Shown piece after piece: positions 16,271-35,157 of a stretch of DNA of 64,000 nucleotides (the stretch's first letter is position 1; the number at the start of each line of letters is the position of its first letter). The stretch comes from an uncultured Thermoplasmata archaeon (GTDB taxonomy: Archaea > Thermoplasmatota > Thermoplasmata > UBA10834). The translations under genes were made by a program, and so were the position numbers. A model generated the notes under the pieces. It did not search any database. It had not been told where the DNA came from and saw nothing but the letters and a program-made list of their open reading frames with translations. The stretch lies in assembly GCA_963719945.1 (NCBI GenBank), contig CAVRDX010000001.1, positions 768,001 to 832,000 of the forward strand, written 5' to 3'.

Positions 16271-17347
16271 CTAGAATAATATCCCCTTGCATCGGATCAC
16301 GCGGTTGAGGCCTCTCCGCCCCAACATGCGCATGGACATCCCTAGGAGAGGGTCGCTTGGGAAGAATATGTCGGCCAATCGTCTAGTGGAGAGGGCGGTC
16401 CGCAATGGTTTCCCCATCACTTCTCGCCATCGCGTCTCGTATGCTGCAAGAGAGCACCTGCCGGCCAAGTGTTCAGCGATCGTCTTGCCGGCGATCCTGC
16501 CAGCTATCATCGCCGTCGGGATGCCCCCACCGTTCGTCGCCATCACCTGTCCCGCAGCGTCGCCAACCAACAACACATTCTCCCGTACAGTGGATGAAGC
16601 AGGGCCGGACATCGGGACCAGTCCCATCGTGATGTCCCCACATTCACAATCCAGCGTTGTCAGGAATTTGTCGAAGACCGCTCTCGGGCTACCTTTTAAG
16701 ATGCCTGGGTTGAATCCGACCCCGACATTCGCACCCCCTGACTTCGGGATTATCCAAGCATACCCACCAGGAGCGACACTGCCGAAGTACATCTTTACGA
16801 CCGGTTCGAACGAACCCTTCACCTGACAGGTCACAGCAGGGTAGTTTATGCGGGAATCACCCATCCCGATTTGTCTCATCGTCTTTGAATTGGGACCATC
16901 CGCGCCGACTATCACCTTCGCCTTGATGTCTCCAAGGGTCGTCCGTGCGATACCGTTTTCGATGGATAGCAGGGACGAATCTGTGCTAAGCCTAGACCCG
17001 GCGTTGATCGCCAGGTCGACCAGGTGCTTGTCGAAGAATCGCCGATCGAGGACATGCGATTTGAACCCACACCTGTATGCTTTTCCCCGCGGTGATATCA
17101 GGTCGATACTGTCGCAAGTCCCTTTGACAAGGTGCGATGGTAGCGTGAAGAGTTCCTGGAGATTCTGACCTTCGGGGAATATCGTATACATCTCATCGGT
17201 GTCTGGAAGGAGTTCCCCGCATTGCACAGGGTAGCCTATCTCCCGTCGTCTATCAATCATCAGAACGTCGATGCCCTCGGACGCACAGAACCTCGCGGTT
17301 GTGCTCCCTGCGGGACCTGCACCGATAATTAGGACGTCGACGTCCAA
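16271..17347 (-). CDS. Geranylgeranyl reductase family flavoprotein
   Basis: GAGPAG, PVQCGE, GADG, PGGYAWIIP, GDAAG..MATNGGGI. Confidence 0.9.
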   Translation of the reverse strand: MDVDVLIIGAGPAGSTTARFCASEGIDVLMIDRRREIGYPVQCGELLPDTDEMYTIFPEGQNLQELFTLPSHLVKGTCDSIDLISPRGKAYRCGFKSHVLDRRFFDKHLVDLAINAGSRLSTDSSLLSIENGIARTTLGDIKAKVIVGADGPNSKTMRQIGMGDSRINYPAVTCQVKGSFEPVVKMYFGSVAPGGYAWIIPKSGGANVGVGFNPGILKGSPRAVFDKFLTTLDCECGDITMGLVPMSGPASSTVRENVLLVGDAAGQVMATNGGGIPTAMIAGRIAGKTIAEHLAGRCSLAAYETRWREVMGKPLRTALSTRRLADIFFPSDPLLGMSMRMLGRRGLNRVIRCKGILF

Positions 17348-18057
17348 GGTTTCTTCCCCCTGGTCATCGTGGCGCCCTTTAGCTTGAGGAACTCGGTCTT
17401 GACCTCGGAGAAGCCCTGTTGAGATAGCAGGTTCTCATAGATCGATGTGAATCCGAAGGCCTTGTAGGTATCCACGAAAGTCATGTAAGGGTCTCGCTTC
17501 AGCCGATGGTATGACGCAGGGTTCACAGCTATCCTCGCGAGCTTCGGAACGACGTGTTTGACATGTATATCCAGCAGCTTCGCGAGCGGACCTGGCGGCG
17601 GCTTTGCGACATCCACTATACGGACCTCGCCTCCATCCTTCAGGACTCTATGTATCTCGGAGATACCCTCACCCTTGTCGAAGAAATCCCTGAATGAGAA
17701 TACGCAGAACACCTTATCCACGCTCTGATCTGCCAGTGGTATCTTCTCCCCCACCGCTCTGACCAACTGTATGCGATTCTGGTCCAGCAGCTCCCTCGAA
17801 TAGTTCGCGAGTTCGCCGGATGGTTCAATGCAATATATCGATTTGGAGATGAGGTGTCTGGCGAATGAGCCTGGTCCTGAACCTACCTCGAGGACCACAT
17901 CATCGGGCTTTGCGTAAGCGGCCACCTCCTGGCGCCATCTGTCAGCAAGTCCGAATGTGATCAACTGGTTCACTCGATCATAGTCTGGGGCGATCTCCTC
18001 GAGCGCCTCGACGACCTCCGTCCAATGCTTCCCGGACATACCATTAGCATCCATCAT
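17329..18057 (-). CDS. menG: UbiE/MenG family quinone C-methyltransferase
   Basis: IAPDYDRVNQLITFGLADRWR, VLEVGSGPG, EIHRVLKDGG; clustered with menA. Confidence 0.8.
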   Translation of the reverse strand: MMDANGMSGKHWTEVVEALEEIAPDYDRVNQLITFGLADRWRQEVAAYAKPDDVVLEVGSGPGSFARHLISKSIYCIEPSGELANYSRELLDQNRIQLVRAVGEKIPLADQSVDKVFCVFSFRDFFDKGEGISEIHRVLKDGGEVRIVDVAKPPPGPLAKLLDIHVKHVVPKLARIAVNPASYHRLKRDPYMTFVDTYKAFGFTSIYENLLSQQGFSEVKTEFLKLKGATMTRGKKPWTSTS

Positions 18058-18068
18058 AATCGAGCCAC

Positions 18069-19061
18069 CTACGAATCTCTGTTCAAGACCCTGTTGACGA
18101 GCTCTCTCAGGGATCTGCTGTATTTGGTGTCTGGCAATGAGCCAAGGTGTTGCAACGCCTCAAGGGCATAATATTCGCCCATGCCCTTCGCCTTATCTAT
18201 CGCCCCGGATTCTATGACGAGATCGATACAACGCCTGACCTTCTCTGCGGGTGGGTCATCCATCTTGACCAGTTCGAGTATCTCTTTGCGTGCAGTCTCC
18301 GAATCCTTCATAGCCAATAGGGATGGCAGAGTCAGATACCCCTCTTTCAGATCCATCCCGACCGGTTTGCCAGTGCGCTTCTCATCACCTATGAAATCCA
18401 GGATATCATCAGCGATCTGGAATGCGATTCCCATATTGAGGCCATAGCTCGCCAGATTGTTGATGTCCTCGAGAGTCCCACCGGCCAGATAGGCCCCGAC
18501 CATCGCACCCGCCCTCAAAGGTTCCGCAGTCTTGCGCTCCATCACCTTCAGGTAGGTGTCCACAGTCATGTCCTGAGTGTGCCGATATTTATTCTGGAGT
18601 ATCTCACCTTCAGCGAGCTTCGCGCAAGCATCCGCCGTTGTCTGGACGACATTCTTGTCGAAGAGTCCTCCGAGAGAGAAAGCCTTTACGAAAAGGAAAT
18701 CACCAGTCACGATCGCGCTATGTAACCCGTACTTCTTGTAGACCGTCTCGCGACCTCGTCTAGCAAGTCCGCCATCGTTTATATCGTCATGAATCAACGT
18801 CGCGGAATGTATAAGCTCGAAAGCCGCTGCGATATCAGCAATCTTCTGAATATCCTCTCCGCCTAGGCTCTTGAATGACAGTATCGTCACGGTAGGTCGG
18901 AGCCGCTTTCCGCCCGCATCGATCACGTGCAATGCGGCCTCGGTGAGATTCTTCTCGCCAGAAGCGACCATCTGACGAAGCTTCTCATCGACCAAGCTAA
19001 GCTCCTCAGAGATGCCGAAATCCCAAGGAGATGGACTCATCAATATTCGCATATGCCCCAA
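18069..19061 (-). CDS. Long-chain trans-polyprenyl diphosphate synthase
   Basis: GGKRLRP, HSATLIHDDIND (Ala five residues before the first DDxxD, long-chain type), RRG, FQIADDILD. Confidence 0.9.
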   Translation of the reverse strand: MGHMRILMSPSPWDFGISEELSLVDEKLRQMVASGEKNLTEAALHVIDAGGKRLRPTVTILSFKSLGGEDIQKIADIAAAFELIHSATLIHDDINDGGLARRGRETVYKKYGLHSAIVTGDFLFVKAFSLGGLFDKNVVQTTADACAKLAEGEILQNKYRHTQDMTVDTYLKVMERKTAEPLRAGAMVGAYLAGGTLEDINNLASYGLNMGIAFQIADDILDFIGDEKRTGKPVGMDLKEGYLTLPSLLAMKDSETARKEILELVKMDDPPAEKVRRCIDLVIESGAIDKAKGMGEYYALEALQHLGSLPDTKYSRSLRELVNRVLNRDS

Positions 19062-19173
19062 TCTCTACTTAACCCTAGTGGTTACTGGCTCTTGGCTGTA
19101 GATGATGGCCAGAAGAGGTTTGGAGGTCCGTATTATTTATATCCAAGTTCGACCAGTTGCATATTGAACTCTT

Positions 19174-20106
19174 ATGAACGAACCAAGCGAGAAGCCATCC
19201 AAACTAAAGATATGGATCGCGGAACTGAGAGTGCCGTTCTTTACAGCTGCAATTGTACCCGCGATATTTGGAACGGCCATCGCGTGGCAGTCTGAAAACA
19301 ATTTTAATGCCATACTCTTCGGTCTTGTGACTCTTGGTGTAATTCTCGCTCACGCAGCAACTAACGTCATCAATGATTACTTCGACTACAAGAGCGGGAC
19401 GGACATATCCAACAAGAACAGAACCCCGTTCAACGGAGGAAGCCCGTTCCTTGTGGAAGGTGTGCTTACACCTAGAGAGGTGTACACCGCCGCTATGCTG
19501 ATGTTTGGCGCATGCGCAGTCATCGGATTCTATCTCGCCTATGCAAGCACTTGGCTCGTAATCCCGCTTGGAATAATCGGCATAGGATTCGGATACTTCT
19601 ATACGATCCCTAAATCAGGACTGGCCGCAAAGGGGGTAGGAGAGGTAGCCCTCGGATTGGGTTTCGGTCCATTGATCGTGGAAGGCGCCTATCTCGTCCA
19701 GACCCAGACATTCAGCATTCCAGTCTTACTCGCGGGAGTCCCTGTGGGACTCTTCATCGGGCTTGTATTGTTCATAAATCAGTTCCCGGACATGGAGGCT
19801 GATGGAGCAGCGGGCAAGAATCATTGGGTCGTCAGGATGGGACTGGCCAAGGCGGCATCGTGGTACGTCGGAACAATGGTCGCGGCCTTCGCTATGATAG
19901 TTGCATTGTCCGCGCTCAATGTGTACCCGCTATACGCACTACTCGCGCTCGCACCATTGCCTCTTGCGTTCAAAGCAATCAAGATAGTACGTGAGAAGTG
20001 CGAGTCCGTAAGAGAACTGGTCCCTGCACAGGCGATGACAATACAGATACACCTCATCACAGGACTGCTGCTCTCTGCTGGGATAGTAGTTGCGGGTTTC
20101 CTGTAA
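19174..20106 (+). CDS. menA: 1,4-dihydroxy-2-naphthoate polyprenyltransferase
   Basis: NVINDYFDYKSGTD, FNGGS, GVGEV, NQFPDMEADGAAGK; multiple TM helices. Confidence 0.88.
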   Translation: MNEPSEKPSKLKIWIAELRVPFFTAAIVPAIFGTAIAWQSENNFNAILFGLVTLGVILAHAATNVINDYFDYKSGTDISNKNRTPFNGGSPFLVEGVLTPREVYTAAMLMFGACAVIGFYLAYASTWLVIPLGIIGIGFGYFYTIPKSGLAAKGVGEVALGLGFGPLIVEGAYLVQTQTFSIPVLLAGVPVGLFIGLVLFINQFPDMEADGAAGKNHWVVRMGLAKAASWYVGTMVAAFAMIVALSALNVYPLYALLALAPLPLAFKAIKIVREKCESVRELVPAQAMTIQIHLITGLLLSAGIVVAGFL

Positions 20107-20123
20107 TCAATGACAGGTCAATA

Positions 20124-21626
20124 TCAGAACCCTATCGGCAGGTTGGTGAATGCCTCCGCTGCCCGCAGACACAGATCCATGACCGCGTCAAAGTATATGC
20201 CCAGCACGACCGTCATCACGAGCGATATGCCAATCGCAACTGTCGTGAATCTCGGCACCTTGACCTTCTCCTCGGAACCTTTCTCCATGTACATGTACTT
20301 GATCACGCGTGCATAATAGTACAGTGACAACGCGCTGTTCAGGACCGCAGCCACGGCCAGCCATATCAACCAGCTCGGTCCCGGGTCACTTGAGCCGTAT
20401 ACCGCAGACGAGAAGAGCACGAACTTGCTTGCGAACCCCGCCAGCGGAGGTATCCCGGCCAGAGAGAATAGGAATATCATCATCGAGATCGCAAGGAATG
20501 GAGAACGCTTGCCGAGGCCTTTGAAATCATCCAATTTCTCCCCTATGGCACATGACGCCATGCCAGCGACGACCATGAAAGCGCCAGACTTCATGAACGC
20601 ATGCGTCAGGATATGGAATAGCGCACCCGCGACCGCATACTGCGTGCCGACAGGGAGTGCGATCAGGATGTAACCAGCCTGGGCGACCGATGAATATGCC
20701 AGCATACGCTTGATGTTCGTCTGCGATACCGCGATCAGGTTGCCCACGGTCATCGTCAGGATAGCCAATATCGCAATAGCTACATCCCAATCGGATTTCG
20801 TCACTATCAGACCGATCAGAAACACTTTGAAGAACGCTGCGAAGCCCATCTTCTTGGATGCCGCTGCGAGCAGGCCAGATATAGGTGTCGGCGCACCCTC
20901 GTACACATCGGGCGCCCACATATGGAAGGGCACGAGCGCCACCTTGAAGCCGAATCCTGCCAGGACGAGCACAGTGGCCAGCAATGCGAACGATTCAGAG
21001 CCTTCGAAAGCGGTGAAGGACGCATCCATCGCAGGACCCATAGCGGAAATGTTCGTCGTGCCGGCGATGCCGTAGAACAGAGAGATCGCGAATAGAGTGA
21101 GCGCGGACGAGAATCCACCTATTATGAAATACTTCGTCGCAGCCTCAGCTGAACGCTTCTCGTGCTTTCTGAATCCTGAGAGTGCGAATGATGATATGCC
21201 GGCGATCTCCAAACCTACGAATATGACGAACAGGTCGGCGGCGCTAGCCACCAGAGTCATTCCTGCGATTGCGAGGAGAATCAATGCATAGTATTCTCCC
21301 TGGTTCCTATCAGTCTTGATGAAGTCCATCGAGGTGAGCACGACTATAATGCCAACTGCGAGGAAAACCAGCATGAACAGTCCGGAGAACAGGTTGATCT
21401 CGACGAGAGCGATGCTGCTGCCAGGAGGGATCCAAGAATCCGTGAATAGCCAGGTCACGACCGCAGCCATGATGGCAATCATCGGGATCAGTGACGCGAA
21501 AGCCACCACCCTCTTGTCCTTGAACAGGTAATCCAGCCCAGGCATCAGAGTCGCAAATAGTATCAGCAATAGCTGCGGAAGGAACGGCTCCAGGGTATTC
21601 AGTATCTCCAATTCATCCACCTCCAT
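20124..21626 (-). CDS. nuoN: Complex I-like (Nuo/Fpo) subunit N
   Basis: SAEAATKYF, GFKVALVPFHMWAPDVYEGAP, KRMLAYSS, SLAGIPPLAGF. Confidence 0.95.
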   Translation of the reverse strand: MEVDELEILNTLEPFLPQLLLILFATLMPGLDYLFKDKRVVAFASLIPMIAIMAAVVTWLFTDSWIPPGSSIALVEINLFSGLFMLVFLAVGIIVVLTSMDFIKTDRNQGEYYALILLAIAGMTLVASAADLFVIFVGLEIAGISSFALSGFRKHEKRSAEAATKYFIIGGFSSALTLFAISLFYGIAGTTNISAMGPAMDASFTAFEGSESFALLATVLVLAGFGFKVALVPFHMWAPDVYEGAPTPISGLLAAASKKMGFAAFFKVFLIGLIVTKSDWDVAIAILAILTMTVGNLIAVSQTNIKRMLAYSSVAQAGYILIALPVGTQYAVAGALFHILTHAFMKSGAFMVVAGMASCAIGEKLDDFKGLGKRSPFLAISMMIFLFSLAGIPPLAGFASKFVLFSSAVYGSSDPGPSWLIWLAVAAVLNSALSLYYYARVIKYMYMEKGSEEKVKVPRFTTVAIGISLVMTVVLGIYFDAVMDLCLRAAEAFTNLPIGF

Positions 21627-23124
21627 ACAGCCTTAGAAGGATCTCTACAGCTGGCGTGATCTTCGAGAATATCAGCGACGGGAAGACCCCGAAGACCGCG
21701 ATGAGGACAATCAATATGGCAACGGGCACTCCTTCGTACCATGTGACATCCTTGAGGTGGGATGTATCGATCTTGTCAGTCATGGGCCCGAACATCGACT
21801 TCTGCAACGCCCACAGATAGTAAGCAGCAGTGATTGCAACAGCAATTACCGGGATGAATACCCACATGGACCATTTCAAGAAAGTCGCGTAGAACACCAT
21901 GAACTCCGCTGCAAAGCTGACCAGACCTGGTAGGCCGAGCGACGCGAGGAATCCTACGGTGATCATCGTTGCCGCGATGGGCATCCTCTTGGCCAGTCCT
22001 CCGAGCTGAGGAATCAATCTCGTGCCGCACTTGTGCTGCACAACACCGCACATCATGAACAATACCGCGGTTACCAGGCCGTGGGCGAACATCTGGAAGA
22101 CCCCGGCGACGATACCGACCTCACCCAGCGTCGCGAAGCCCAGAAGAACGAAGCCCATGTGACTTATCGACGAATATGCAACCATCTTCTTCAGGTCCTT
22201 CTGTGCCAGACACAATATGGCACCATAGAGGATGCTCACGACAGCAATGATGGCCATAAGCACGGAGAGGCTCTCGGCTCCTTGAGGCAGGGAGGTCATC
22301 GCGACCCTGATGATACCATATCCGCCCATCTTGAGCAGCAGGCCGGCCAGCAGCACGCTACCGGCAGTCGGTGCTTCTACATGTGCATCAGGAAGCCAGG
22401 TGTGGAACGGCACCATCGGGAGCTTCACACCGAAGCCGAAGAACATCGCAGCGAAGATGGCCACCTGCACACCCTTCGCGAAGCCCACGCTCACGCCTGC
22501 GATCGCTTCCATGCTGAAGGTCTGCAACCCAGCCTCGAAGTACATCGCCATGATGGAGATGAGCAGAGCCAGGCTCGCGACATGTGTGTATATGAAGAAT
22601 TTGATCGCAGCGTAGTCCTTCCTCGGACCGCCCCAGATGCCGATCATGAAGTACATCGGTATCAGGACGACCTCCCAGAACACATAGAACATGAAGTAGT
22701 CCAATGAAACGAAAACGCCAAGGACTCCGACCTCAAGAATGAGCATGAGACCGAAGTACTCCTTCGGACGCTTCTCCGTATCCCAGGAGAATATGATGGA
22801 CAGCGTGCATAGTAGGGTCGTGAGCACGAACAGTGGAAGGCTGATGCCATCCAAACCGACGATGTAGTTGATCCCGAGAGTGCTGATCCATGCATGTTCC
22901 TCGTAGAACTGATAATCGGAGTGATAGCCGGTCGCTGACGGCGATGGATCTGTCGCGAACTCGTATGCGACCAACAGCGACAGTATCAGCGCTGCGACCG
23001 AGAATGCGAGGGCGATGTATTTCGCATACTTCTCATACCTGCCCAACGAGAACGTGATGAACGCTCCGATGAGAGGAAAGAGTATTGTCAGAGAAAGCAC
23101 CGGCACACCTTCGAGCATCGTCAA
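21613..23124 (-). CDS. nuoM: Complex I-like subunit M
   Basis: FYVFWEVVLIPMYF, AAIKFFIYT, PFHTWLPDAHVEAP, LLKMGGYG. Confidence 0.95.
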   Translation of the reverse strand: MTMLEGVPVLSLTILFPLIGAFITFSLGRYEKYAKYIALAFSVAALILSLLVAYEFATDPSPSATGYHSDYQFYEEHAWISTLGINYIVGLDGISLPLFVLTTLLCTLSIIFSWDTEKRPKEYFGLMLILEVGVLGVFVSLDYFMFYVFWEVVLIPMYFMIGIWGGPRKDYAAIKFFIYTHVASLALLISIMAMYFEAGLQTFSMEAIAGVSVGFAKGVQVAIFAAMFFGFGVKLPMVPFHTWLPDAHVEAPTAGSVLLAGLLLKMGGYGIIRVAMTSLPQGAESLSVLMAIIAVVSILYGAILCLAQKDLKKMVAYSSISHMGFVLLGFATLGEVGIVAGVFQMFAHGLVTAVLFMMCGVVQHKCGTRLIPQLGGLAKRMPIAATMITVGFLASLGLPGLVSFAAEFMVFYATFLKWSMWVFIPVIAVAITAAYYLWALQKSMFGPMTDKIDTSHLKDVTWYEGVPVAILIVLIAVFGVFPSLIFSKITPAVEILLRLYGGG

Positions 23125-25083
23125 TCACCCTCCCCATGGCAATATGTACAAAACGAGTATCAACAGAAGGCAGATGCCAACCACGATGAGCCCTGCATAG
23201 CGCTGCACGTTGCCGTTCTGCAGTCTCCTTATGAAGTTCCCGGTATTGCCACCCAGGAACGAGAATCCGTTCACAATGCCATCTATGACATATCTGTCGA
23301 AAGCGTCTGCGACCAGCGACAGTCCATATACGACCTTCACGGCGAAGTCGTCATAGAACTTGCTGATATACCATCTGTTCTCAAGGGCGCGCTGGACCTT
23401 GCCGTTGAATCCGGTGGAGAACATGCTCCTATCGAATCCAGGAGTGAGGTAGATCTTCCTCGCGAGCATTATCCCGACGACTGCGAGCGTCAGCGACACA
23501 TAGGTCAGCGGATCGGAGAATATCTCGATCGCAACATCGGCCAGTGATTCGTGTGCTGCACCATGCAGCAGCCCCTCGATCGACAATTCCATGAATCCTT
23601 TGAATCCATCACCGATGAACAAGACGAATCCGGATGTCATGGCCAGCCCTGCAAGTATCATCAGCGGGACGGTCATTATCCTGGGCGACTCGTGTGCATG
23701 ATAATCGGACCTCGGCTCTCCTGCGAACGTCATGAACCACATCCGGAACATGTAGAACGCGGTCATGAACGCGGTGATTATCCCCATCAGCCACAGCAGG
23801 AAGAAGACGGAATCGAATTCCCCCGCATGCCAAACGGCTGCCAGCACCTCATCTTTGCTCCAGAAACCGGAGAACGGCGGTATGCCGGATATGGCTAACG
23901 CTCCGATCAGCATCGTGAGCGATGTGATCTTCATCTTCTTGCCTAAACCACCCATGAGTCGCATGTCGTTCGTGCCTATCGCGTGTATCACGCTTCCGGC
24001 GCAAAGGAACAGAAGAGCCTTGAAGAACGCATGGTTCATCAGATGGAATGTAGCAGCTGCATATCCTCCCGGAGAATTCGCATAGATGACCAGATAGCCG
24101 CCGGCACCCAATCCCAGAATCATGTATCCGAGCTGGCTGATCGTACTGTATGCAAGAACGCGCTTGATATCGTTCGCTGCCAATGCGACCGTCGCGGCCA
24201 ATATCGCGGTTACTCCGCCGATCACTGCAACGAACAGAAGGCTCTCAGGAGCATGAATGAGCAGTGGATACGATCTAGCTACGAGATACACTCCTGCCTT
24301 GACCATCGTTGCCGCATGAATGAGGGCCGATACCGTGGTGGGACCCTCCATCGCATCCGGCAACCATTCGTGCAGAGGGAATTGTGCGCTCTTTCCAATG
24401 GCTCCACCGAATATCAGCGCGGTAGCGAGTATCATCATATCCGTGGGTACTGCAGCGGCCCCAGATTCCGAGAAGAGTGTCTCGAAGTCGAGGCTCCCCA
24501 CATACTTGAACAGGATTATGATGCCCGCCATGAACATTATATCGCCCACACGGGTGACTATGAAAGCACGCTTGGCGGCACTGGCTGCGGACGGTTTCTC
24601 GTACCAGAAACCTATGAGAAGGTATGAACAAAGACCGACTAGCTCCCAGAATATGAACATCTGGAGATAGTTGTCGGATATCACCAGACCGAACATCACC
24701 GATATGAAGAGGGTTATCTCGGCGTAGTAGCGCCTCCTGCCCTCCCCTTCCTCGCGCATGTAGCCGCCGGAGTAGATCACTACAAGGGTGCCCACTATAG
24801 AAACGACCACTAGCATGAGCGCGGTCAACTGGTCTATCCATACGCCGAACTCGAGAGAGAAGTCCCCCACTTCCAGCCACTTGAACTTGGGGGTATCTGT
24901 CGTGAGGGTCTCACCGTTCAACACGCTCCATACGACCAATAGGGATAGCACCAACGAGCACAGGGTACCTGCGATGGCGTAGACTGCCCCTGATTCCCAC
25001 CAGAGTGTGCGTTTCGGCAGGAGCGCGATGAGTATGAACGCCACGAATGGGAAGACTGGGATCAGCCACGCGTACTCGAGCAC
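23125..25083 (-). CDS. nuoL: Complex I-like subunit L
   Basis: FWELVGLCSYLLIGFW, GKSAQFPLHEWLPDAMEGPT, HAATMV, HAFFKALLFL. Confidence 0.95.
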   Translation of the reverse strand: MLEYAWLIPVFPFVAFILIALLPKRTLWWESGAVYAIAGTLCSLVLSLLVVWSVLNGETLTTDTPKFKWLEVGDFSLEFGVWIDQLTALMLVVVSIVGTLVVIYSGGYMREEGEGRRRYYAEITLFISVMFGLVISDNYLQMFIFWELVGLCSYLLIGFWYEKPSAASAAKRAFIVTRVGDIMFMAGIIILFKYVGSLDFETLFSESGAAAVPTDMMILATALIFGGAIGKSAQFPLHEWLPDAMEGPTTVSALIHAATMVKAGVYLVARSYPLLIHAPESLLFVAVIGGVTAILAATVALAANDIKRVLAYSTISQLGYMILGLGAGGYLVIYANSPGGYAAATFHLMNHAFFKALLFLCAGSVIHAIGTNDMRLMGGLGKKMKITSLTMLIGALAISGIPPFSGFWSKDEVLAAVWHAGEFDSVFFLLWLMGIITAFMTAFYMFRMWFMTFAGEPRSDYHAHESPRIMTVPLMILAGLAMTSGFVLFIGDGFKGFMELSIEGLLHGAAHESLADVAIEIFSDPLTYVSLTLAVVGIMLARKIYLTPGFDRSMFSTGFNGKVQRALENRWYISKFYDDFAVKVVYGLSLVADAFDRYVIDGIVNGFSFLGGNTGNFIRRLQNGNVQRYAGLIVVGICLLLILVLYILPWGG

Positions 25084-25084
25084 T

Positions 25085-25405
25085 CTACCACCTCAGGATG
25101 TTTATCTTGTCGACATCGATCGTCTGATATCTTCTGTAGACCGATAGTATGATAGCCAGACCCACCGCGACCTCTGCGGCGGCGATGGCTATGGAGAACA
25201 GTGTGAACACCTGACCGGTCGCGTCAGGGACTGTATGCAGGACGCTATGATAGCTGCTGAACATCACGAGGTTGATGTTCGCCGCATTGAGCATTATCTC
25301 TATGCACATGAGCACGACGATGGCGTTCTTCCTGGACACTACGCCGTAGGCGCCCACGACGAACAGGAGCGAGCTGAATACGAGCCAGTACTCGATCGGG
25401 ATCAT
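25085..25405 (-). CDS. nuoK: Complex I-like subunit K
   Basis: LMCIEIMLNAANIN, AIAAAEVAVGLA; start set at MIPIEY. Confidence 0.93.
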   Translation of the reverse strand: MIPIEYWLVFSSLLFVVGAYGVVSRKNAIVVLMCIEIMLNAANINLVMFSSYHSVLHTVPDATGQVFTLFSIAIAAAEVAVGLAIILSVYRRYQTIDVDKINILRW

Positions 25406-25647
25406 TCCTTCTCCTCCTTTGCGAGAAAGATCCCGCCCAGCATTGCGACGAACAGGAGCACGCCTATCATCAGGACGACAAGAGCGTATCCGCTCGAATT
25501 GTCCGTCCCAAACATCGACCATGCGACGTCCTCGTTCGTGACTGCATCCATCTCACCTTCTGGCCAGGACACGCCGGTCACGACCAGAACAAAGAGCAAC
25601 GCGAGCAGAAGCAAAGACGAGCCTTTGATGATCGAATTGAGCTTCAT
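25402..25647 (-). CDS. Complex I-like subunit J, C-terminal half (FpoJ2-like)
   Basis: MKLNSII start; two TM helices ending LLFVAMLGGIFLAK; position between J1 and K. Confidence 0.8.
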   Translation of the reverse strand: MKLNSIIKGSSLLLLALLFVLVVTGVSWPEGEMDAVTNEDVAWSMFGTDNSSGYALVVLMIGVLLFVAMLGGIFLAKEEKE

Positions 25648-25907
25648 CGGTCGCCACTCCCCATTATCTCGCGCTTGGTCAGCATTATTCCGAACAGGAT
25701 GACGACTACGACTGCACCCACATACACGAGTATCTGAATTATAGCTACGAATTCGGCATTCAGCATGATATACATGCAAGCGACAGCAATGAAGCAGGTG
25801 GCCAGCGCCACTACCCCATGGATTATCTCCCTGGCTCTGACCACAAGAAGAGCAGAGACCAACGCCGACGCAGAAAGGAACAGGAATATGAACATCTCCC
25901 AGGTCAC
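25644..25907 (-). CDS. nuoJ: Complex I-like subunit J, N-terminal half (FpoJ1-like)
   Basis: AEFVAIIQILVYVGAVVVVILFGIML signature. Confidence 0.9.
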   Translation of the reverse strand: MTWEMFIFLFLSASALVSALLVVRAREIIHGVVALATCFIAVACMYIMLNAEFVAIIQILVYVGAVVVVILFGIMLTKREIMGSGDR

Positions 25908-26815
25908 TTCTTCACCCCCGGCATCTCGATCGCTCCGAACTTACATGCTTTGAAACATCGGCCACAGCCGACACATTTCTCGAACACGAAGACCGCGCGT
26001 TTCTTTGGCTTCCCCTTCTTGCCATCCTTGAGGGTCTTCTCGCTTCCAGGTATCTCCATCATGTAAATGGCATCTGCAGGGCACGCGCGCGCACATGCTG
26101 AACAACCTGTGCATTTGGATAGCAGCAATTTCGGCTCGGGCATCTCGAAGTAGGACTCGTATACCTCAGTCGAAACGAGGGCTTTCTCAGGACATGCAAC
26201 GATGCACTTCTCGCATGATGTGCACTTGGCGAGGTTGATCTCGGGCTTCTTCTTGTCGACCTTCTCGATGGGCATCATGGCAATGCACATCTCAGGGCAC
26301 TCACCCGCGCATTTCTCGCAGCTGGTGCACTTGGACATATCCAAGTATGGCAGCTTGCGGGACTGGCGCTCCTCCTTGAATGTAGAGGCGAATGCATCAT
26401 CACGAATGTCCTTCGGGCTGAGAACGAAGCTCTCGCGCTTGCGATCGGCCAACTCATATTCGGTCGTCAAGTGCAGCGCGACAGTAGGACATACTTCGGC
26501 ACAGAATCCGCAGAACAAGCATCTGCCTATGTCGACACCCGGCCTTTCTATCTTGCCGAGCTCCGGATCCTCAATCTTCTCAAGCCACATGCATTCGTTT
26601 GGACAGATATTGAGACAGTTACCGCAACCGATGCATCTCTTGAAATCGAGAGTGTGTTTCCCCCTGTATACCTGCGGCAACACCAGTTTCTCATGAGGAT
26701 AGAGAACTGTGTTGGGCCTGCCAAGTATGAACGAGCGCACAAACTGACGACCGGTGCGCATCATCGGCCTCACGACATACCCGAAGAAGCTCACCTTGCC
26801 TCGTTCCCTAACCAC
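25904..26815 (-). CDS. nuoI: Complex I-like subunit I with a polyferredoxin extension (six [4Fe-4S] motifs)
   Basis: T..YP.EK..LP..YRG.H, CIGCGNC..ICP, RCLFCGFCAEVCP, then four further CxxCxxCxxxC motifs. Confidence 0.92.
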   Translation of the reverse strand: MVRERGKVSFFGYVVRPMMRTGRQFVRSFILGRPNTVLYPHEKLVLPQVYRGKHTLDFKRCIGCGNCLNICPNECMWLEKIEDPELGKIERPGVDIGRCLFCGFCAEVCPTVALHLTTEYELADRKRESFVLSPKDIRDDAFASTFKEERQSRKLPYLDMSKCTSCEKCAGECPEMCIAMMPIEKVDKKKPEINLAKCTSCEKCIVACPEKALVSTEVYESYFEMPEPKLLLSKCTGCSACARACPADAIYMMEIPGSEKTLKDGKKGKPKKRAVFVFEKCVGCGRCFKACKFGAIEMPGVKK

Positions 26816-27941
26816 TGAACCACCCCATCGTCTTGAATGTGGCTGCTATGAGCAGGTTGAGGACGGCCAATGGCAGGAGCCGTTTCCATCCGAGCTCCAA
26901 TATCTGGTCGACACGGACCCTTGGAAGCGACCATCTCATCCATTCGATGACTACGAACACGGTGTAAGCCTTGATCAGGAACCATATCTCGTCCGGTATC
27001 AGGGATGGCCCCTGCCATCCACCAAGAAACAGCGCGGTGGCGAGCGCACCACCAGCGTATCCTCGAAGATATGATGTCATCATGAAGAATCCGAAACGCA
27101 TGCCGCTGTATTCAGTGGTCCATCCCTCGACGAGCTCGGCCTCCGCTTCGGGCAGGTCGAACGGGGTCACCTCCACCTCGGCTGCTATGCATACGATGAA
27201 TACAACCAGACCTATGAACAGGGGTATCGCGAACCATATGTCGTGCTGGGCATCGACTATCCCCACGAAACTGAAACTTCCAGAGAGCAGAATCACGCTG
27301 GCGACAGTCAACAACAGTGGTATCTCATAGCTCATCATCTGAGCGGCGGACCTCATCCCACCTATCAGAGTGAACTTGTTGTTGGAAGACCAGCCTGCGA
27401 GCAGAATGCAGAATGGCGCTATTGCGAATGCGGCGAACGCGAAAAGTACTCCAGCGGACACGAACTCTCCAGATTCGTTAGTCGCTATGCCGAAGTTGGG
27501 GCTCAACGGTATCGTCGCGAGTATCAGGAATGAAGAGCCTATGAATAGGACCGGAGCGAGAAGGAACCCGAGCCTGTCAGCCTTGGCGGGGACGATTATC
27601 TCCTTGACGAACAGCTTCATGCCGTCCGCGAGGTTCTGGAGCCAGCCACCGATCCTGTAACCCACGTAATAAGGACCATAGAAGTCGAATATCCTGCCGC
27701 TGAGTTTTCTATCCAGCCATATGAAGTTGAGGACGTTGATGAGCGCGACTATGATGACTATGAGCGATTCCAGCATTATGGTCATCACCGCGGTGTGACC
27801 GTGGGACCCTGCGAAGTCACCGACGTCGGTGAAGAAATCACCGAAGTACCAGGGAAGCACATCCCCGAGCCAGTACCATAGGTGGTTGACCAGGTCCACG
27901 AGCCACACAATTATGCCATTGCAGAATTGGAAAAGGTTCAT
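26808..27941 (-). CDS. nuoH: Complex I-like subunit H
   Basis: WLDRK, LQNLADGMKLFVKE, RSAAQMMSYE, PFDLPEAEAELVEGWTTEYSG, LPRVRVDQ; start set at MNLFQ. Confidence 0.95.
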   Translation of the reverse strand: MNLFQFCNGIIVWLVDLVNHLWYWLGDVLPWYFGDFFTDVGDFAGSHGHTAVMTIMLESLIVIIVALINVLNFIWLDRKLSGRIFDFYGPYYVGYRIGGWLQNLADGMKLFVKEIIVPAKADRLGFLLAPVLFIGSSFLILATIPLSPNFGIATNESGEFVSAGVLFAFAAFAIAPFCILLAGWSSNNKFTLIGGMRSAAQMMSYEIPLLLTVASVILLSGSFSFVGIVDAQHDIWFAIPLFIGLVVFIVCIAAEVEVTPFDLPEAEAELVEGWTTEYSGMRFGFFMMTSYLRGYAGGALATALFLGGWQGPSLIPDEIWFLIKAYTVFVVIEWMRWSLPRVRVDQILELGWKRLLPLAVLNLLIAATFKTMGWFSG

Positions 27942-27945
27942 GGTC

Positions 27946-29028
27946 TCACCTGTCACACTCCCCGATGCACATGTCCAATCCACCCATTATGGCCACGACA
28001 TCGGCCACCTTGTAGCCTACAAGCATACGAGGGGCTGCTGATACGGTTATGAAGATGGGACTACGGATCTTGAGGCGATACGGCTTGTCTGAGCCGTCTC
28101 CGACGACATACATCATCCCTTCACCCCTGGGATCCTCGACCCTGCCCAAGCCAGTGCCGATGGGTGCGTTCCTCGGAGCGACCGTGCGCCATTTGCCTGC
28201 GGGCATGCGCTGGATCGCCTGTCGGATGATCTTACAGCACTCCCACATCTCATCCATTCTCACACGATAACGCGCAAAACAGTCACCTTCAGGTCGTGAG
28301 CAGACTTCGAAATCGAGGTCCGAGTAGACGGAATAAGGCCGGTCCTTGCGCATATCATACTTCACACCACTCGCCCTTAATGGCGGGCCAGTGACACCAA
28401 GGTCGAGAGCGTCTTCCTTCGTGAGGAGGCCTACGTCGACATTCCTCATCATGAATATCTTCGAACCCTCGTACAGATCCTCGTACTCCTTCAGACGAGT
28501 CTCGATGTAATCGCATGCACGCAACGCCTCCCGGTCCCAGTTCGGCGGCAGGTCGTGCGCGACCCCGCCTATACGAGGATAGTTGTATGTCAATCGCGAA
28601 CCCGAAAGGCTCTGGAGAAGGTCCACGAGGACCTCCCTGTCCCTCATGGAGTAGATGAATCCCGCCATCATTCCGAGGTCCACGGCATATGCCGCGAGCC
28701 ACATCAGATGGGAGGCCAGTCTCTGCATCTCAATGGCGATCACTCGGATGTACTCTGCCCGCTCAGGGACCTCTATGCCCATCAGGTCCTCCACCGTCAT
28801 GCAGTACAGGTGACTCCATGTGAGCGAAGAACCGTAGCATAGCCTGTCCGCGAGCGGAATTATCTGCGGATAGGTCCTGTTCTCGCAGATCTTCTCGATG
28901 CCGCGGTGGAGATAGCCGACCTCGGGTTCCGCATCGACGATGGTCTCGCCATCTACCTTGACGCGGAGGTTCCACAGACCATGCGTCATCGGGTGCTGCG
29001 GTCCCATGTTGATCCACATTTCGGCCAT
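27946..29028 (-). CDS. nuoD: Complex I-like subunit D
   Basis: NMGPQHPMTHG, GYLHRGIEK, DRLCY, EDPRGE, C-terminal GECDR. Confidence 0.95.
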   Translation of the reverse strand: MAEMWINMGPQHPMTHGLWNLRVKVDGETIVDAEPEVGYLHRGIEKICENRTYPQIIPLADRLCYGSSLTWSHLYCMTVEDLMGIEVPERAEYIRVIAIEMQRLASHLMWLAAYAVDLGMMAGFIYSMRDREVLVDLLQSLSGSRLTYNYPRIGGVAHDLPPNWDREALRACDYIETRLKEYEDLYEGSKIFMMRNVDVGLLTKEDALDLGVTGPPLRASGVKYDMRKDRPYSVYSDLDFEVCSRPEGDCFARYRVRMDEMWECCKIIRQAIQRMPAGKWRTVAPRNAPIGTGLGRVEDPRGEGMMYVVGDGSDKPYRLKIRSPIFITVSAAPRMLVGYKVADVVAIMGGLDMCIGECDR

Positions 29029-29034
29029 CCATGA

Positions 29035-29544
29035 TCACATCCTGAAATCCTTGCGCAACGGGTGATACATCGTATCCTTCGGCAACAGTATCCTTTCCAG
29101 TTTAGGATGGTCCTTGAACACTATGCCCATGAGGTCATACGATTCTCTCTCGTTCCAATTCGCTCCGCCCCAGATCGATGAAATGGAATCGACTGTCGGG
29201 TCTTCCTTGGGCAGCTTCACGATGAGCTCCAGCATGATGTTGGATTGATAGGAATTGATGTGATAGACTATCTCGAACCTGTCAGGGTAGTCAACCGCGG
29301 ATATCATGGAGAGGTGCTCGAATCCAAGGTCATTTCTCAGGAGTCTGCATGCATCATGGAGACTGTCGCGAGCGATGATGGTGCGTATGAGTCCATCCCT
29401 GACCCGCTCAGACCCCTCGACCGACTTGCCGAACGCGTCGCTGATCGTCCGGAGCACATGCTCCTCAGGGTCCTCGCCTATCGTCAACGGGGCTCTTTCG
29501 ATGTTCCCCGTAGGGTCCTGGTTGCCTCTTCCCCCTCCCCTCAT
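29035..29544 (-). CDS. nuoC: Complex I-like subunit C
   Basis: SAVDY, ANWNERESYDLMGIVF.DHP.L.RILL...HPLRKDF; the true start may be TTG at 29487. Confidence 0.92.
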   Translation of the reverse strand: MRGGGRGNQDPTGNIERAPLTIGEDPEEHVLRTISDAFGKSVEGSERVRDGLIRTIIARDSLHDACRLLRNDLGFEHLSMISAVDYPDRFEIVYHINSYQSNIMLELIVKLPKEDPTVDSISSIWGGANWNERESYDLMGIVFKDHPKLERILLPKDTMYHPLRKDFRM

Positions 29545-29569
29545 ATATGATCCCCTGCTATCTTCTCCA

Positions 29570-30142
29570 TCATCGGCCCGTAAGAAGGCCGCGTTTGTTC
29601 TCCAAGATGATTTTCTGCAATTTCAGGAACCCGTCTATCAACGCCTCTGGCCTAGCCGGGCATCCGGGTATGTAAATGTCGACTGGGATGAAAGTGTCCA
29701 CACCAGGGACTACATTGTAACTCTCCCAGAACGGTCCTCCGGATATCGCACACTCACCCATGGCGATGACCCACTTGGGTTCAGGCATCTGATCGTATAG
29801 CCGCCTGAGAGCAGGCTTCAACTTCTTGCTCACGGGACCGTTGACCAGGAGCACATCGCACTGACGGGGTGTCGATCTGTATATGACCCCCATCCTCTGA
29901 GCGTCGAACCTCGGTGCCGAGGCGACGGCCATCTCCAAGGCACAACACATGATACCGAAATGAAGCGGGTAGATGGAGTTTCTCGTAGCCCAATTGAAAA
30001 AATCCTTGAGCAATAGGTCAAGAGCGCCACCCACGGGTGTCTTCTTGAGGATGACCTCAAGTGTCTCATCGGACCATTTGAGAAAATCCTTTGAGCGGAA
30101 CATCATGACCTGGCCCGCGGAAGGCTTGTCCCCATTGTTCAA
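29570..30142 (-). CDS. nuoB: Complex I-like subunit B
   Basis: Tandem-Cys CCALEM, TPRQCD, PEPKWVIAMGECAISGG, VDIYIPGCP. Confidence 0.95.
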   Translation of the reverse strand: MNNGDKPSAGQVMMFRSKDFLKWSDETLEVILKKTPVGGALDLLLKDFFNWATRNSIYPLHFGIMCCALEMAVASAPRFDAQRMGVIYRSTPRQCDVLLVNGPVSKKLKPALRRLYDQMPEPKWVIAMGECAISGGPFWESYNVVPGVDTFIPVDIYIPGCPARPEALIDGFLKLQKIILENKRGLLTGR

Positions 30143-30498
30143 ATCCAGATTATCTCCTCCTTCTTGAGGGCGTACACGACACCCACGAGAAGAATACCTA
30201 GGAAAGCCAACATCGAGAACTTGGCCATATCGCTTAGGTCAGTGAAGACGAGAGCCCACATGAGCACGAAGACCGTGACCAGGTCGAAGGCGATGAAAAG
30301 GATGGCGTACATATAATACTGGAAATGGAACTGAATCTGCGCCTCACCTATCGGGACTTCACCACATTCGTATGTGGTGGTACCTCGCGGATCGTTCTTA
30401 TCTGGTCTGAGATAGCGCGATAAGAGGAAGACTAGGGCAGGAAGCAAAACCGCTATGACCGCGAATGCAGCGACCCCCATATAGTCCTCTGCGAGCAT
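30139..30498 (-). CDS. nuoA: Complex I-like subunit A
   Basis: TYECGE, QYYMYAILFIAFD; three TM helices. Confidence 0.93.
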   Translation of the reverse strand: MLAEDYMGVAAFAVIAVLLPALVFLLSRYLRPDKNDPRGTTTYECGEVPIGEAQIQFHFQYYMYAILFIAFDLVTVFVLMWALVFTDLSDMAKFSMLAFLGILLVGVVYALKKEEIIWI

Positions 30499-30520
30499 CG
30501 CCCTCGGATTCGCATCAAAG

Positions 30521-30534
30521 TATTAAGGGTTTTC
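30521..30534 (-). promoter_or_regulatory. BRE-TATA promoter of the complex I-like operon (probably leaderless nuoA)
   Basis: Minus strand GAAAACCCTTAATA ending about 23 nt before the nuoA ATG. Confidence 0.6.
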
Positions 30535-30662
30535 AGTGTACGGTTCTTAGATTGTGGGCCGTCAGTATCGAATTTTCTTCAATTACTCTGCGCATTTGCA
30601 GCAGATAAGACGCGGAGAATTAGATGAAAGAGGTTTCAGCGACCGATTAGATGATGAAACGT

Positions 30663-31253
30663 CTAGCGGATGCGGATTCCACACCGCGCACAGAATGATG
30701 TATCCGAGGCAATGGTCGAGCCACATGCCGGACATGTGCCACCGACACCTCCTGGCGGAGGTATGAAAGGCGCGGGGCCAGGGGCCGTCTTCGATGCCTT
30801 GGCCTTTTCATCACCCAATATAAAGACGATAACGACGATCACGATGACCACGATTATGACAACCGTGATGATTCCGATGATGAGGACCATCGACAGGGCG
30901 TCCTCGACGTTATCAAGTATATCTATGGTATAGTTCAGATTGACCGTCGTTGTCCCTTCGTTCGCCCATGTGAATGTGTAATCTCCGCTCACTGCAGCCT
31001 CCATCGATCCTGCATCAGATACGGATACTTCATCGACCAGTGCGGTGCCAGTCGGTGAACTGAGGGTAAAATGTAGGTCGTCTTCGCAGTACCAGAGGTA
31101 GGTGATCTCGTCACCCGCACTATAATGGGCCGCGTCAGAATAGCTCGATCCAGGCTGGATGTTTCTGCTAGCATTGGCACTGACCCCCGTCGATGCGCAC
31201 AACACCATCATCAATGCCAACACGGAGCAAGCCAAAATCGGAGCATGTCTCAT
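30663..31253 (-). CDS. Membrane protein with signal peptide, small beta-rich ectodomain, TM helix, Pro-rich linker and C-terminal Zn ribbon
   Basis: Hydrophobic N-terminus, I/V-rich TM helix, PGPAPFIPPPGG, CPACG...FCARCG. Confidence 0.75.
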   Translation of the reverse strand: MRHAPILACSVLALMMVLCASTGVSANASRNIQPGSSYSDAAHYSAGDEITYLWYCEDDLHFTLSSPTGTALVDEVSVSDAGSMEAAVSGDYTFTWANEGTTTVNLNYTIDILDNVEDALSMVLIIGIITVVIIVVIVIVVIVFILGDEKAKASKTAPGPAPFIPPPGGVGGTCPACGSTIASDTSFCARCGIRIR

Positions 31254-31370
31254 GATTTATCCCGATTGATATCGGATTCACGGATATTTAGCAGTTATAG
31301 TCCCTGCAATCCACATCTCGCGCTGTAGTTGGATATGTATTTAGTACGGCCGTCGCAATCTTCGACCGAG

Positions 31371-33999: not shown

Positions 34000-35157
34000 A
34001 TGAGGAAGATCTCAGAGATCGAAAAGGACCTCGATGCATGCCTTCAATGCGGATACTGCAGGGATACCTGCCCAGTCTACAAACAGATCGGTTGGGAATC
34101 GGCCACGCCGAGAGGCAAAGTGTTCTACCTGAAACAGATAAAGAACAAGACCCCGGTGGACACATTGCTCCGAAGGACGCCGAAGATAGATGAGAAGTTC
34201 GTCGAGAGGATATTCCAGTGCACTTCATGCGCTGCATGCGAACATAACTGCCATGTCGAGATCGACTTCGCCAAGCTATGGGAAGAGGTAAAGGAATGGC
34301 TGATTGACCAGGGCCATGGGCCCATGGAAGCCCATAAGAAGATAAAGGAAAGGGTCGTGGCCAAGCACAACCCATTTGATGAGCCTAAGGAGAAGAGGCC
34401 GGCGTGGTTGCCAAAGGATGTGAAGCTCTCAGATAACCCAGAGGTGGTCTTCTTCACCGGTTGCACCGAGGCATACAGGATGCAGCCGCTCGCTGTTGCG
34501 ACCGCAAAGCTCCTGGACAAAGCTGGGGTCGCATTCACTACCATGGGAGAAGAGGAATGGTGCTGCGGGTCGCCGCTCCTTAGGACAGGGCAGAAAATAC
34601 CAGTGATGCAGGAGATCGCACCTCACAACGTGCAGGAGATGGAGAGGCACGGTTGGAAGACGATGGTCACTGCATGCGCGGGCTGCTACAACACGATGAA
34701 GAACGACTATCCGAAGATGGTCGGAAAACCATCGTTCAAGCTCTACCATGTCTCAGAGTACCTAGATAAGCTCATCAAAGAGAACAAGCTCAAATTCACC
34801 AAGGAGTTCAAGAAGAAGGTCGCCTACCACGACCCATGCCACCTTGGAAGGCACGCGAAGGTGTACGATGCCCCCAGGAACGTCCTCAGGGCCATACCTG
34901 GGCTGGAATTGGTTGAGATGAGGCACGAGAAGGGAGATTCTCAGTGCTGTGGCGCTGGTGGAGGGTTCAAAGCCGCCTTCAACGACATGGCGGAGAGCAT
35001 CGCAGCAGATAGGGTCAAGGAAGCCATCGATGCGGGGGCCGAGCTGATCGTCACATCGTGTCCGTTCTGTCAGGTCAACCTCAACGCAGGTGCCAAGAAA
35101 GCGGGCGTGGACATCAAGACGATGGATGTCGTGCAGGTCGCCTTGCAGGCTCTCTGA
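34000..35157 (+). CDS. HdrD/GlcF-like Fe-S oxidoreductase (2x[4Fe-4S] plus two CCG domains)
   Basis: CLQCGYC..TCP, CTSCAAC..NC, FTGC, EWCCG, TACAGC, HDPC, QCCG, TSCPFC. Confidence 0.9.
   Translation: MRKISEIEKDLDACLQCGYCRDTCPVYKQIGWESATPRGKVFYLKQIKNKTPVDTLLRRTPKIDEKFVERIFQCTSCAACEHNCHVEIDFAKLWEEVKEWLIDQGHGPMEAHKKIKERVVAKHNPFDEPKEKRPAWLPKDVKLSDNPEVVFFTGCTEAYRMQPLAVATAKLLDKAGVAFTTMGEEEWCCGSPLLRTGQKIPVMQEIAPHNVQEMERHGWKTMVTACAGCYNTMKNDYPKMVGKPSFKLYHVSEYLDKLIKENKLKFTKEFKKKVAYHDPCHLGRHAKVYDAPRNVLRAIPGLELVEMRHEKGDSQCCGAGGGFKAAFNDMAESIAADRVKEAIDAGAELIVTSCPFCQVNLNAGAKKAGVDIKTMDVVQVALQAL

Follow-up and report, generated by a model that had tools for sequence, protein, structure and literature searches.

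A NuoI subunit lengthened by two ferredoxin domains in a headless complex I-like operon of uncultured Thermoplasmata

The window analyzed here, a 64,000-nucleotide stretch of the genome of an uncultured Thermoplasmata archaeon of the order UBA10834 (GenBank assembly GCA_963719945.1, contig CAVRDX010000001.1, positions 768,001 to 832,000), encodes a complex I-like nuo/fpo operon whose subunit I, NuoI, carries a long C-terminal extension with additional iron-sulfur cluster motifs. A first-pass annotation of the window, made from its letters alone, had read the operon as A, B, C, D, H, I, J1, J2, K, L, M and N, and its NuoI as a 303-residue protein with six CxxCxxCxxxC motifs and a Lys-rich loop, and both descriptions hold: Pfam matches identify every gene of the operon, and the open reading frame, six Pfam Fer4 stretches and the translation agree on the protein, whose loop reads KTLKDGKKGKPKKR. 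The gene order is identical in the five operon loci L001-L005. Here, we describe this NuoI as a canonical subunit I domain (D1) continued by two further 2x[4Fe-4S] ferredoxin domains (D2 and D3; Table 1), conserved across the order, and we propose that the added domains would provide the electron entry of a complex that encodes no conventional input module.

The nuoI gene lies between nuoH and nuoJ, as expected of the family, starts with GTG and overlaps the nuoH stop by 8 nucleotides. Its six motifs begin at residues 61, 99, 163, 198, 235 and 281, and their nucleotide coordinates were confirmed by translation. The NCBIfam NuoI hidden Markov model (HMM) TIGR01971 matches residues 30-136 with 165.5 bits, against a cut-off of 113.05, and the first two motifs are of the form CxxCxxCxxxCP with a hairpin between them; they are presumed to be the N6a and N6b sites. 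Beyond this canonical part the protein continues for 167 residues. The PorD model TIGR02179 passes its cut-off (77.4 bits against 60.05), a resemblance at the level of the domain only, with no 2-oxoacid oxidoreductase context. The FpoI model of F420H2 dehydrogenase (NF040612; 113 bits against a cut-off of 180) and the FwdF model (NF042909; 70.4 against 375) are not reached. With three tandem 2x[4Fe-4S] domains, the number from which a protein counts as a polyferredoxin, NuoI is predicted to be polyferredoxin-like in its working, but it falls outside the FwdF (NF042909) and VhuB (NF045874) HMM families. The six-motif architecture itself is near certain.

Table 1. Coordinates of the six-cluster NuoI, its parts and associated genes within the window
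Feature	Position	Strand	Basis and remarks
nuoI/fpoI-like gene	25904..26815	-	303 amino acids (aa), six CxxCxxCxxxC motifs; open reading frame list, TIGR01971, Pfam
N-terminal helix (aa 10-29) and canonical NuoI domain D1 (aa 1-136)	26408..26815	-	AlphaFold2, 7awt_I superposition, invariant Cys
D1 motif 1	26600-26635	-	
D1 motif 2	26486-26521	-	
Linker, aa 137-150	26366..26407	-	conservation 0.58-0.67; helix then coil in model
D2, PorD-like 2x[4Fe-4S] ferredoxin domain, aa 151-222	26150..26365	-	PorD superposition, isoelectric point (pI) 6.4
D2 motif 3	26294-26329	-	
D2 motif 4	26189-26224	-	
D3, distal basic 2x[4Fe-4S] ferredoxin domain, aa 223-303	25907..26149	-	pI 9.3, invariant Cys
D3 motif 5	26078-26113	-	
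D3 motif 6	25940-25975	-	ends in CK, not CP
Lys-rich hairpin loop KTLKDGKKGKPKKR within D3, aa 260-273	25997..26038	-	near-invariant; flanking strands 250-254 and 272-276 in model
11-subunit-type operon nuoA-B-C-D-H-I-J1-J2-K-L-M-N, NuoJ split in two	20124..30498	-	Pfam match per gene
Quinone-tail cassette abutting nuoN: GGR-like, UbiE/MenG-like, polyprenyl synthase, divergent MenA-like prenyltransferase	16271..20106	.	Pfam
HdrD/TfrB-like CCG iron-sulfur protein, candidate partner	34000..35157	+	Pfam: two CCG domains and Fer4_8

Predicted structure supports this division of the protein. An AlphaFold2 model built on an 80-sequence alignment (predicted local distance difference test score, pLDDT, 84; predicted template modelling score 0.74; pLDDT about 90 over residues 50-120) consists of the N-terminal helix and three ferredoxin-like units at residues 54-116 (D1), 152-219 (D2) and 228-298 (D3). 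Superposed with VIA-align, residues 39-150 match the NuoI chain of a solved complex I (7awt_I) with Z 12.7 and a root-mean-square deviation (rmsd) of 3.2 Å over 105 residues, and many further complex I chains match D1 by fold as well. D2 superposes closely on 9bt4_G, the PorD chain of pyruvate:ferredoxin oxidoreductase (Z 10.8, rmsd 1.4 Å, 64 residues), and the top whole-length Foldseek matches of NuoI are FwdF/FmdF polyferredoxins (FwdF, E 4e-9), so that the earlier description of a polyferredoxin fused to NuoI is borne out by fold. The nearest solved chains by sequence are MbsN, NdhI, HycF, NuoI and FmdF.

The six-cluster form is a feature of one order. A word-indexed search of 5.8 billion proteins returned approximately 95 clusters (90% identity) of 300-332 amino acids with identical layout, all from uncultured Thermoplasmata. 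One homologue among them derives from 'Euryarchaeota archaeon RBG_16_62_10', a metagenome-assembled genome (MAG) placed in GTDB order UBA10834 (bioRxiv 10.1101/2020.03.09.984617), an order later named 'Ca. Gimiplasmatales' as cited in PMC11264602. Of the order's 49 species genomes, 46 encode full-length six-cluster NuoI, among them all 12 of high quality, with six of six genera and both families represented; identity to the window's protein is 69-95% in one family and 56-58% in the other. Across 401 genomes of the class, each at least 80% complete, no full-length six-cluster match was found outside the order. (Three unpublished genomes in this sample, G127, G215 and G282, gave only short NuoI-domain matches, and no claim depends on them.) When 1.84 billion representatives at 50% identity were searched exhaustively with HMMER, a single full-length representative came up, followed by about 12 four-cluster forms. 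The form is thus common in the clade, as the first-pass annotation allowed that it might be; as to its having been described, a literature search, outside of which key subscription papers lie, gave no account of a subunit I extended to four or six clusters, and papers on these lineages give only 'FpoABCDHIJKLMN' (e.g. PMC4153887).

The four-cluster forms bear on how the protein arose. The first-pass annotation measured NuoI against a baseline of two clusters, which does not hold in this part of the class: four-motif NuoI proteins of 244-290 amino acids occur in many other families (19 were extracted), including the McrA-bearing genomes of bona fide Methanomassiliicoccales, and because of this spread the local baseline is four clusters, not two. 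The four-cluster NuoI of family f6 (e.g. P0127) and P0096 have an extra domain that is the counterpart of D3: by pairwise scoring it reaches a local score of 190-201 against D3 (z ~30) and of 103-116 against D2, and it has the D3-like 46-residue motif spacing and an 'IPGT.K...G..G..KK' hairpin. No four-cluster form other than this f6/P0096 type has a D3-like domain that bears the Lys hairpin. The extra domain of the Methanomassiliicoccales type cannot be placed in the same way, as hhalign scores are similar among it, D1, D2 and D3, and pairwise scores likewise assign it to neither D2 nor D3. Because the f6/P0096 domain corresponds to D3, the six-cluster form looks like a NuoI-D3 protein with D2 inserted between its two parts, or else f6 has lost D2. 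Retention of D3 alone in f6/P0096 would fit a division of labor in which D3 is the functional end and D2 a spacer.

Conservation within the six-cluster family follows a similar division. Across 67 family members, none of the sixteen cysteines of D1 and D3 (eight in each) varies. In D2, by contrast, 20 of 67 relatives have another residue in place of the second cysteine of motif 3, and 22 of 66 in place of that of motif 4. The loss of this second cysteine from a D2 motif in about a third of the family is a classical mark of a [3Fe-4S]-type site and suggests one there, and the label 'six [4Fe-4S]', while it suits the window's protein, would not suit the whole family. Mean column conservation is 0.84 in D1, 0.70 in D2 and 0.80 in D3. 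D3 is also the basic domain, with 17 Lys or Arg residues to 8 Asp or Glu. Its Lys hairpin is nearly invariant across the ~95 clusters, and residues 251-280, which include it, are among the best conserved of the protein (0.89, 0.73 and 0.94 in successive 10-residue blocks). A domain that is both basic and about as conserved as D1 would fit an input or docking role. In the second family of the order, NuoI (313-332 amino acids; L005, P0077, P0082, P0088) has, in addition to the internal Lys hairpin, a Lys/Pro/Gly-rich C-terminal tail after D3, for example ...KPKGRPKKGGKK.

The complex to which this NuoI belongs has no recognizable head, as the first-pass annotation had noted from the operon. The genome (1.78 Mb in 4 contigs, 87% complete) contains no match to NuoF (PF01512), NuoE (PF01257) or NuoG (PF10588), which form the N-module of the 14-subunit NADH:quinone oxidoreductase, and none to FrhB/FpoF (PF04432) or FpoO (PF10621), which mark an F420H2 dehydrogenase; McrA (PF02249) is likewise without a match. 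Across the order, a NuoF-like gene occurs in 1 of 49 genomes and an FrhB-like gene (FrhB_C) in 4 of 49. Judged from gene content, and as far as the completeness of the MAGs allows, the headless state holds for this genome and for the order as a whole. The lone NuoF-like (PF01512) gene lies in a 69%-complete MAG of the window's own genus (G044:C10:8733-9248, within a 668-residue frame) and may come from a contaminant or belong to a soluble hydrogenase or dehydrogenase.

The complex is also not a hydrogenase by the evidence of its large subunit. NuoD does not carry the two CxxC motifs of a group 4 [NiFe] hydrogenase, reading RLCYGS and DMCIGECDR as against RVCGIC and DPCFAC in a Thermoprotei MbhL-like protein, and it is encoded by the only gene of the NuoD/[NiFe]-large-subunit family in the genome, which therefore has no Mbh or Ech alongside the complex. 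The first cysteine of both former [NiFe] motifs is retained in the window's nuoD product (27946-29028, reverse strand; RLCY..., DMC...), and a further cysteine in it is found in the window's genome alone (GECDR, compared with GETDR in relatives). On the acceptor side, we take a quinone to be the probable electron acceptor because NuoB has the cysteines of cluster N2, NuoD has the quinone-site His and Tyr, and a MenA-like gene abuts the operon (19174-20106, forward strand; TIGR00751, 107.4 against a cut-off of 102).

Several features of the neighborhood recur elsewhere. The polyprenyl synthase (PPS), UbiE and GGR genes lie downstream of nuoN in L001-L004. In the window's genus the divergent MenA-like gene comes in addition; it adjoins nuoN only in the window and in L001, and in L002-L005 nuoN is followed directly by polyprenyl synthase. 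The order of Ta0216-type B12 radical-SAM gene, nuoA-N, polyprenyl synthase and GGR-like gene (window 16271-33077) is also found in two McrA-bearing Methanomassiliicoccales (L120 of G098 and L121 of G179), a shared synteny that may point to a pathway for a lipid-soluble carrier associated with the Fpo-like complex, in the methanogens too. Just upstream of nuoA (30663-31253, reverse strand) lies a gene for a 196-residue protein that matches no family and is predicted to be a membrane protein. Its N-terminus is signal-like, one helix is rich in Ile and Val, and a CxxC...CxxC zinc-ribbon stands at the C-terminus; proteins of 29-33% identity are encoded at the equivalent place in L002 and L004.

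We propose that D2 and D3 extend the N6a-N6b-N2 cluster chain outward and that the basic D3, with its Lys hairpin, is a low-potential entry port for which an acidic ferredoxin would be the simplest donor, and we put the probability of this reading at roughly 0.55. The enzyme would then be an 11-subunit-type, complex I-like membrane oxidoreductase that works without an NADH or F420H2 input module. Its four additional clusters, if all six sites of NuoI are occupied, would form a continuous chain leading outward from the surface-exposed NuoI cluster, in the place that NuoG would otherwise occupy. The most probable donor to D3 would be an acidic soluble ferredoxin that has itself been reduced by 2-oxoacid oxidoreductases or by Wood-Ljungdahl enzymes, and its low-potential electrons would presumably run inward, from D3 through D2 and N6a/N6b to N2 in NuoB and on to a menaquinone-type carrier, their flow driving ion pumping by NuoL, NuoM and NuoN. 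The earlier suggestion that the added clusters act as a built-in wire, serving as electron input or as a dock, is in keeping with the basic and conserved D3. It named the HdrA-MetVF module as one candidate for docking, but nothing was found that links the HdrA-MvhD-MetVF module encoded in the window specifically to NuoI.

Several points weigh against a ferredoxin entry port. Two-cluster NuoI homologues in MBH and NDH-1 already take electrons from ferredoxin, so the oxidation of ferredoxin needs no four-cluster extension. As a rule, known polyferredoxins are links between two enzymes and not docks for a soluble ferredoxin, and this favors a fixed partner enzyme. About a third of the family lacks one ligand cysteine in D2, and since a [3Fe-4S] cluster normally has a higher potential, such a site could be an uphill step in a low-potential wire. 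On the acceptor side, a search for the quinone head-group pathway that covered MqnA of the futalosine route gave no match in the genome. A search of sequencing runs returned no RNA run with the gene and DNA runs at small share only, a result that says nothing either way.

Foremost among the alternatives is that D2 and D3 are not a ferredoxin dock at all, but a tether or wire to a fixed partner enzyme, most plausibly the HdrD/TfrB-like CCG protein encoded nearby, in an assembly of Fpo-like complex and HdrD-type enzyme, or else a soluble complex of the Hdr/Mvh/MetVF type. We consider this unlikely, though it is a contender to be taken seriously. Upstream of the operon and divergent from it lie a Ta0216-type B12 radical-SAM gene, a MobB/Fe-S gene and the gene for the CCG protein, whose best NCBIfam match is TfrB, under that model's cut-off. 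The first-pass annotation had named this protein as a possible partner, and its position does prove to be conserved: at least 30 genomes of the order, from both families and including all three of the second, carry an ortholog on the nuoI contig, at a distance of 6.4-10.6 kb from that gene. The gene was absent from the operon flanks examined in family f6 and in two Methanomassiliicoccales, so that adjacency and the six-cluster form are both order-specific, but co-occurrence within one clade has no statistical weight. In another Thermoplasmata lineage (L009, 7501-15520; also L010 and L012), a GlcD-like FAD oxidase gene, nuoB and a four-cluster nuoI are grouped, away from nuoC, nuoD and nuoH, and after them come two genes of MetE type, one rubrerythrin-like and one HdrD-like; there, the nuoB-nuoI pair stands directly after the GlcD-like gene and 3.6 kb from the HdrD-like gene, an arrangement that also speaks for a partner enzyme.

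General precedent points the same way, as polyferredoxins of solved structure are wires that join enzymes or modules (PMC13580544), and a model in which an Fpo-like complex works with HdrD is current, having been proposed for Methanomassiliicoccales (bioRxiv 10.1101/2020.03.09.984617; PMC7824343). The details of the locus are less favorable. The HdrD-like gene is divergently transcribed, with the radical-SAM and MobB-like genes between it and the operon; each genome encodes 3-8 HdrD paralogues; the protein is itself basic (pI 8.4), a poor match to a basic D3, so that a simple electrostatic argument lends this partner no support; and the organism has no McrA match. A bolder version makes the six-cluster NuoI the bridge of a hitherto unknown respiratory supercomplex, in which the order-specific HdrD/TfrB-like CCG protein, or some other soluble redox enzyme, has a direct wire to the modules for quinone and proton pumping; we regard it as distinctly unlikely. 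If true, however, such a supercomplex would link the chemistry of ferredoxin, or of thiols and disulfides, to menaquinone and to ion translocation with no free carrier in between, and the insertion of D2 between NuoI and D3 would be the step that created the docking geometry.

A further alternative keeps the ferredoxin dock and reverses the current, making the complex a quinol:ferredoxin reductase driven by proton-motive force, in which D3 passes low-potential electrons to ferredoxin for use in the Wood-Ljungdahl pathway or in other reductions. In principle, enzymes of the complex I type can run in either direction, the window also encodes Fhs, the HdrA-MvhD-MetVF module and MetF, and a methylotrophic, acetogenic life with a need for reduced ferredoxin has been proposed for relatives (PMC11264602). 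The sequence holds no signal of direction, but relatives are reported to possess heterotrophic, ferredoxin-generating enzymes (bioRxiv 10.1101/2020.03.09.984617) with which forward operation is the simpler assumption, and we find reverse flow quite improbable. To the idea that the extra domains stand off the main electron path altogether, whether as a structural cap that replaces the contacts of NuoG, as an aid to assembly or stability, as a redox sensor or as a buffer of electrons, we give very little credence: the complex does lack NuoG and NuoEF, the usual cover of NuoI, and many family members tolerate the loss of a D2 ligand cysteine, but the eight ligand cysteines of D3 are invariant and its Lys loop nearly so, the folds are those of bona fide electron-transfer ferredoxin domains, and parallel fusions of NuoI to true input modules exist. 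That the long reading frame is an artefact, a nuoI and a ferredoxin gene merged by frameshift or misassembly, can be set aside, as the frame is uninterrupted in 46 genomes and ~95 protein clusters from independent assemblies, and no free-standing close homologue of the C-terminal module was found other than truncated contig-end fragments of the fused gene.

In NuoI-D2-D3, a familiar subunit of a known type of complex has a changed domain architecture. Its interest lies in the question that it makes accessible, since the donor of headless 11-subunit complex I and Fpo-like enzymes in archaea and bacteria, and the place where that donor docks, are still largely inferred from genomes. With this order comes a graded natural series in one gene, from two-cluster NuoI through NuoI-D3 or NuoI-D2' to NuoI-D2-D3, and a basic D3 with invariant cysteines and a Lys hairpin is a concrete target for mutation through which electron entry into headless complex I becomes testable. 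The proposed route also bears on how the non-methanogenic relatives of Methanomassiliicoccales in sediments and aquifers conserve energy.

Comparable extensions of NuoI have arisen in other lineages. A search of representatives found proteins of ~564 amino acids (P0142, P0194, P0207) that are covalent FpoI-FpoF fusions: a single chain holds a NuoI domain, one more ferredoxin domain with two clusters, and an FrhB/FpoF-like domain. Fusions of NuoI to a GltD-like NAD(P)H module (~600 amino acids; NF010590/PRK13984) occur in several bacterial phyla. NuoI-polyferredoxins of 8-12 clusters also exist, one family (the P0166 cluster) having 959 members, among them the Dialister sp.-labelled P0290. Members of the P0166 cluster join a bacterial NuoI domain to up to ten more cluster motifs in 444-682 amino acids and are abundant in public assemblies. 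Finally, an unrelated six-cluster NuoI-like protein is found in MAGs of Thermoprotei and Desulfurococcales. In one hot-environment Thermoprotei MAG recovered by a metagenome scan (L106, 6886-10422), the 293-residue six-cluster subunit is encoded directly before a HycI protease gene, in the cluster of an MBH-type [NiFe] hydrogenase with NuoB-C, a large subunit with intact CxxC, the six-cluster subunit and HycI, and with divergent Mrp-like subunits. Hydrogenases of the MBH type are ferredoxin-dependent. The six-cluster subunit I of Thermoprotei is of independent origin, and extension of NuoI on its input side is thus a recurrent theme, with covalent addition of wires or input modules as a recurrent evolutionary solution.

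Set against known systems, the N-terminal 136 residues of the window's protein are those of a canonical NuoI/Nqo9/NDUFS8/NdhI/HycF/MbhN subunit in HMM, fold, both motifs and gene place, and it departs from that family in its added residues, which hold two extra 2x[4Fe-4S] domains, and in that no NuoG, NuoEF, FpoF or NdhS-type partner is encoded. With the four-cluster FpoI/NuoI of Methanomassiliicoccales and other Thermoplasmata it shares the type of operon, the fusion of ferredoxin domains to NuoI and the radical-SAM/PPS/GGR flanks, but those proteins have one extra domain where the window's order has two. Methanothrix (Methanosaeta) FpoI is reported to carry a Lys-rich C-terminal extension proposed as the ferredoxin dock of a headless Fpo. 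Compared by description, the two have in common the headless Fpo and a basic Lys-rich element on subunit I, but the Methanothrix element is a cluster-free tail, whereas that of the window is a hairpin inserted within the cluster-binding D3, which qualifies the comparison with the basic FpoI extension of headless Fpo-like complexes in the first-pass annotation.

With the methanogen polyferredoxins (EhaP with 6[4Fe4S], EhaQ, EhbK, FwdF/FmdF and MvhB), the window's NuoI shares tandem 2x[4Fe-4S] domains as electron wires. Polyferredoxin subunits are encoded in the operons of Eha and Ehb, energy-converting hydrogenases related to complex I (PMC3087415). The methanogen proteins are, however, separate polypeptides of hydrogenase, Fwd or Hdr systems, whereas the predicted wire of the window is covalently part of the NuoI of a complex that contains a quinone site and NuoLMN. 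The other NuoI fusions, like the window's protein, begin with the NuoI domain and lengthen its input side within one polypeptide; they differ in their identity (~30-37%), domain spacing and hosts (bacteria and Thermoproteota), and in bringing with them a catalytic input domain or a true [NiFe] context.

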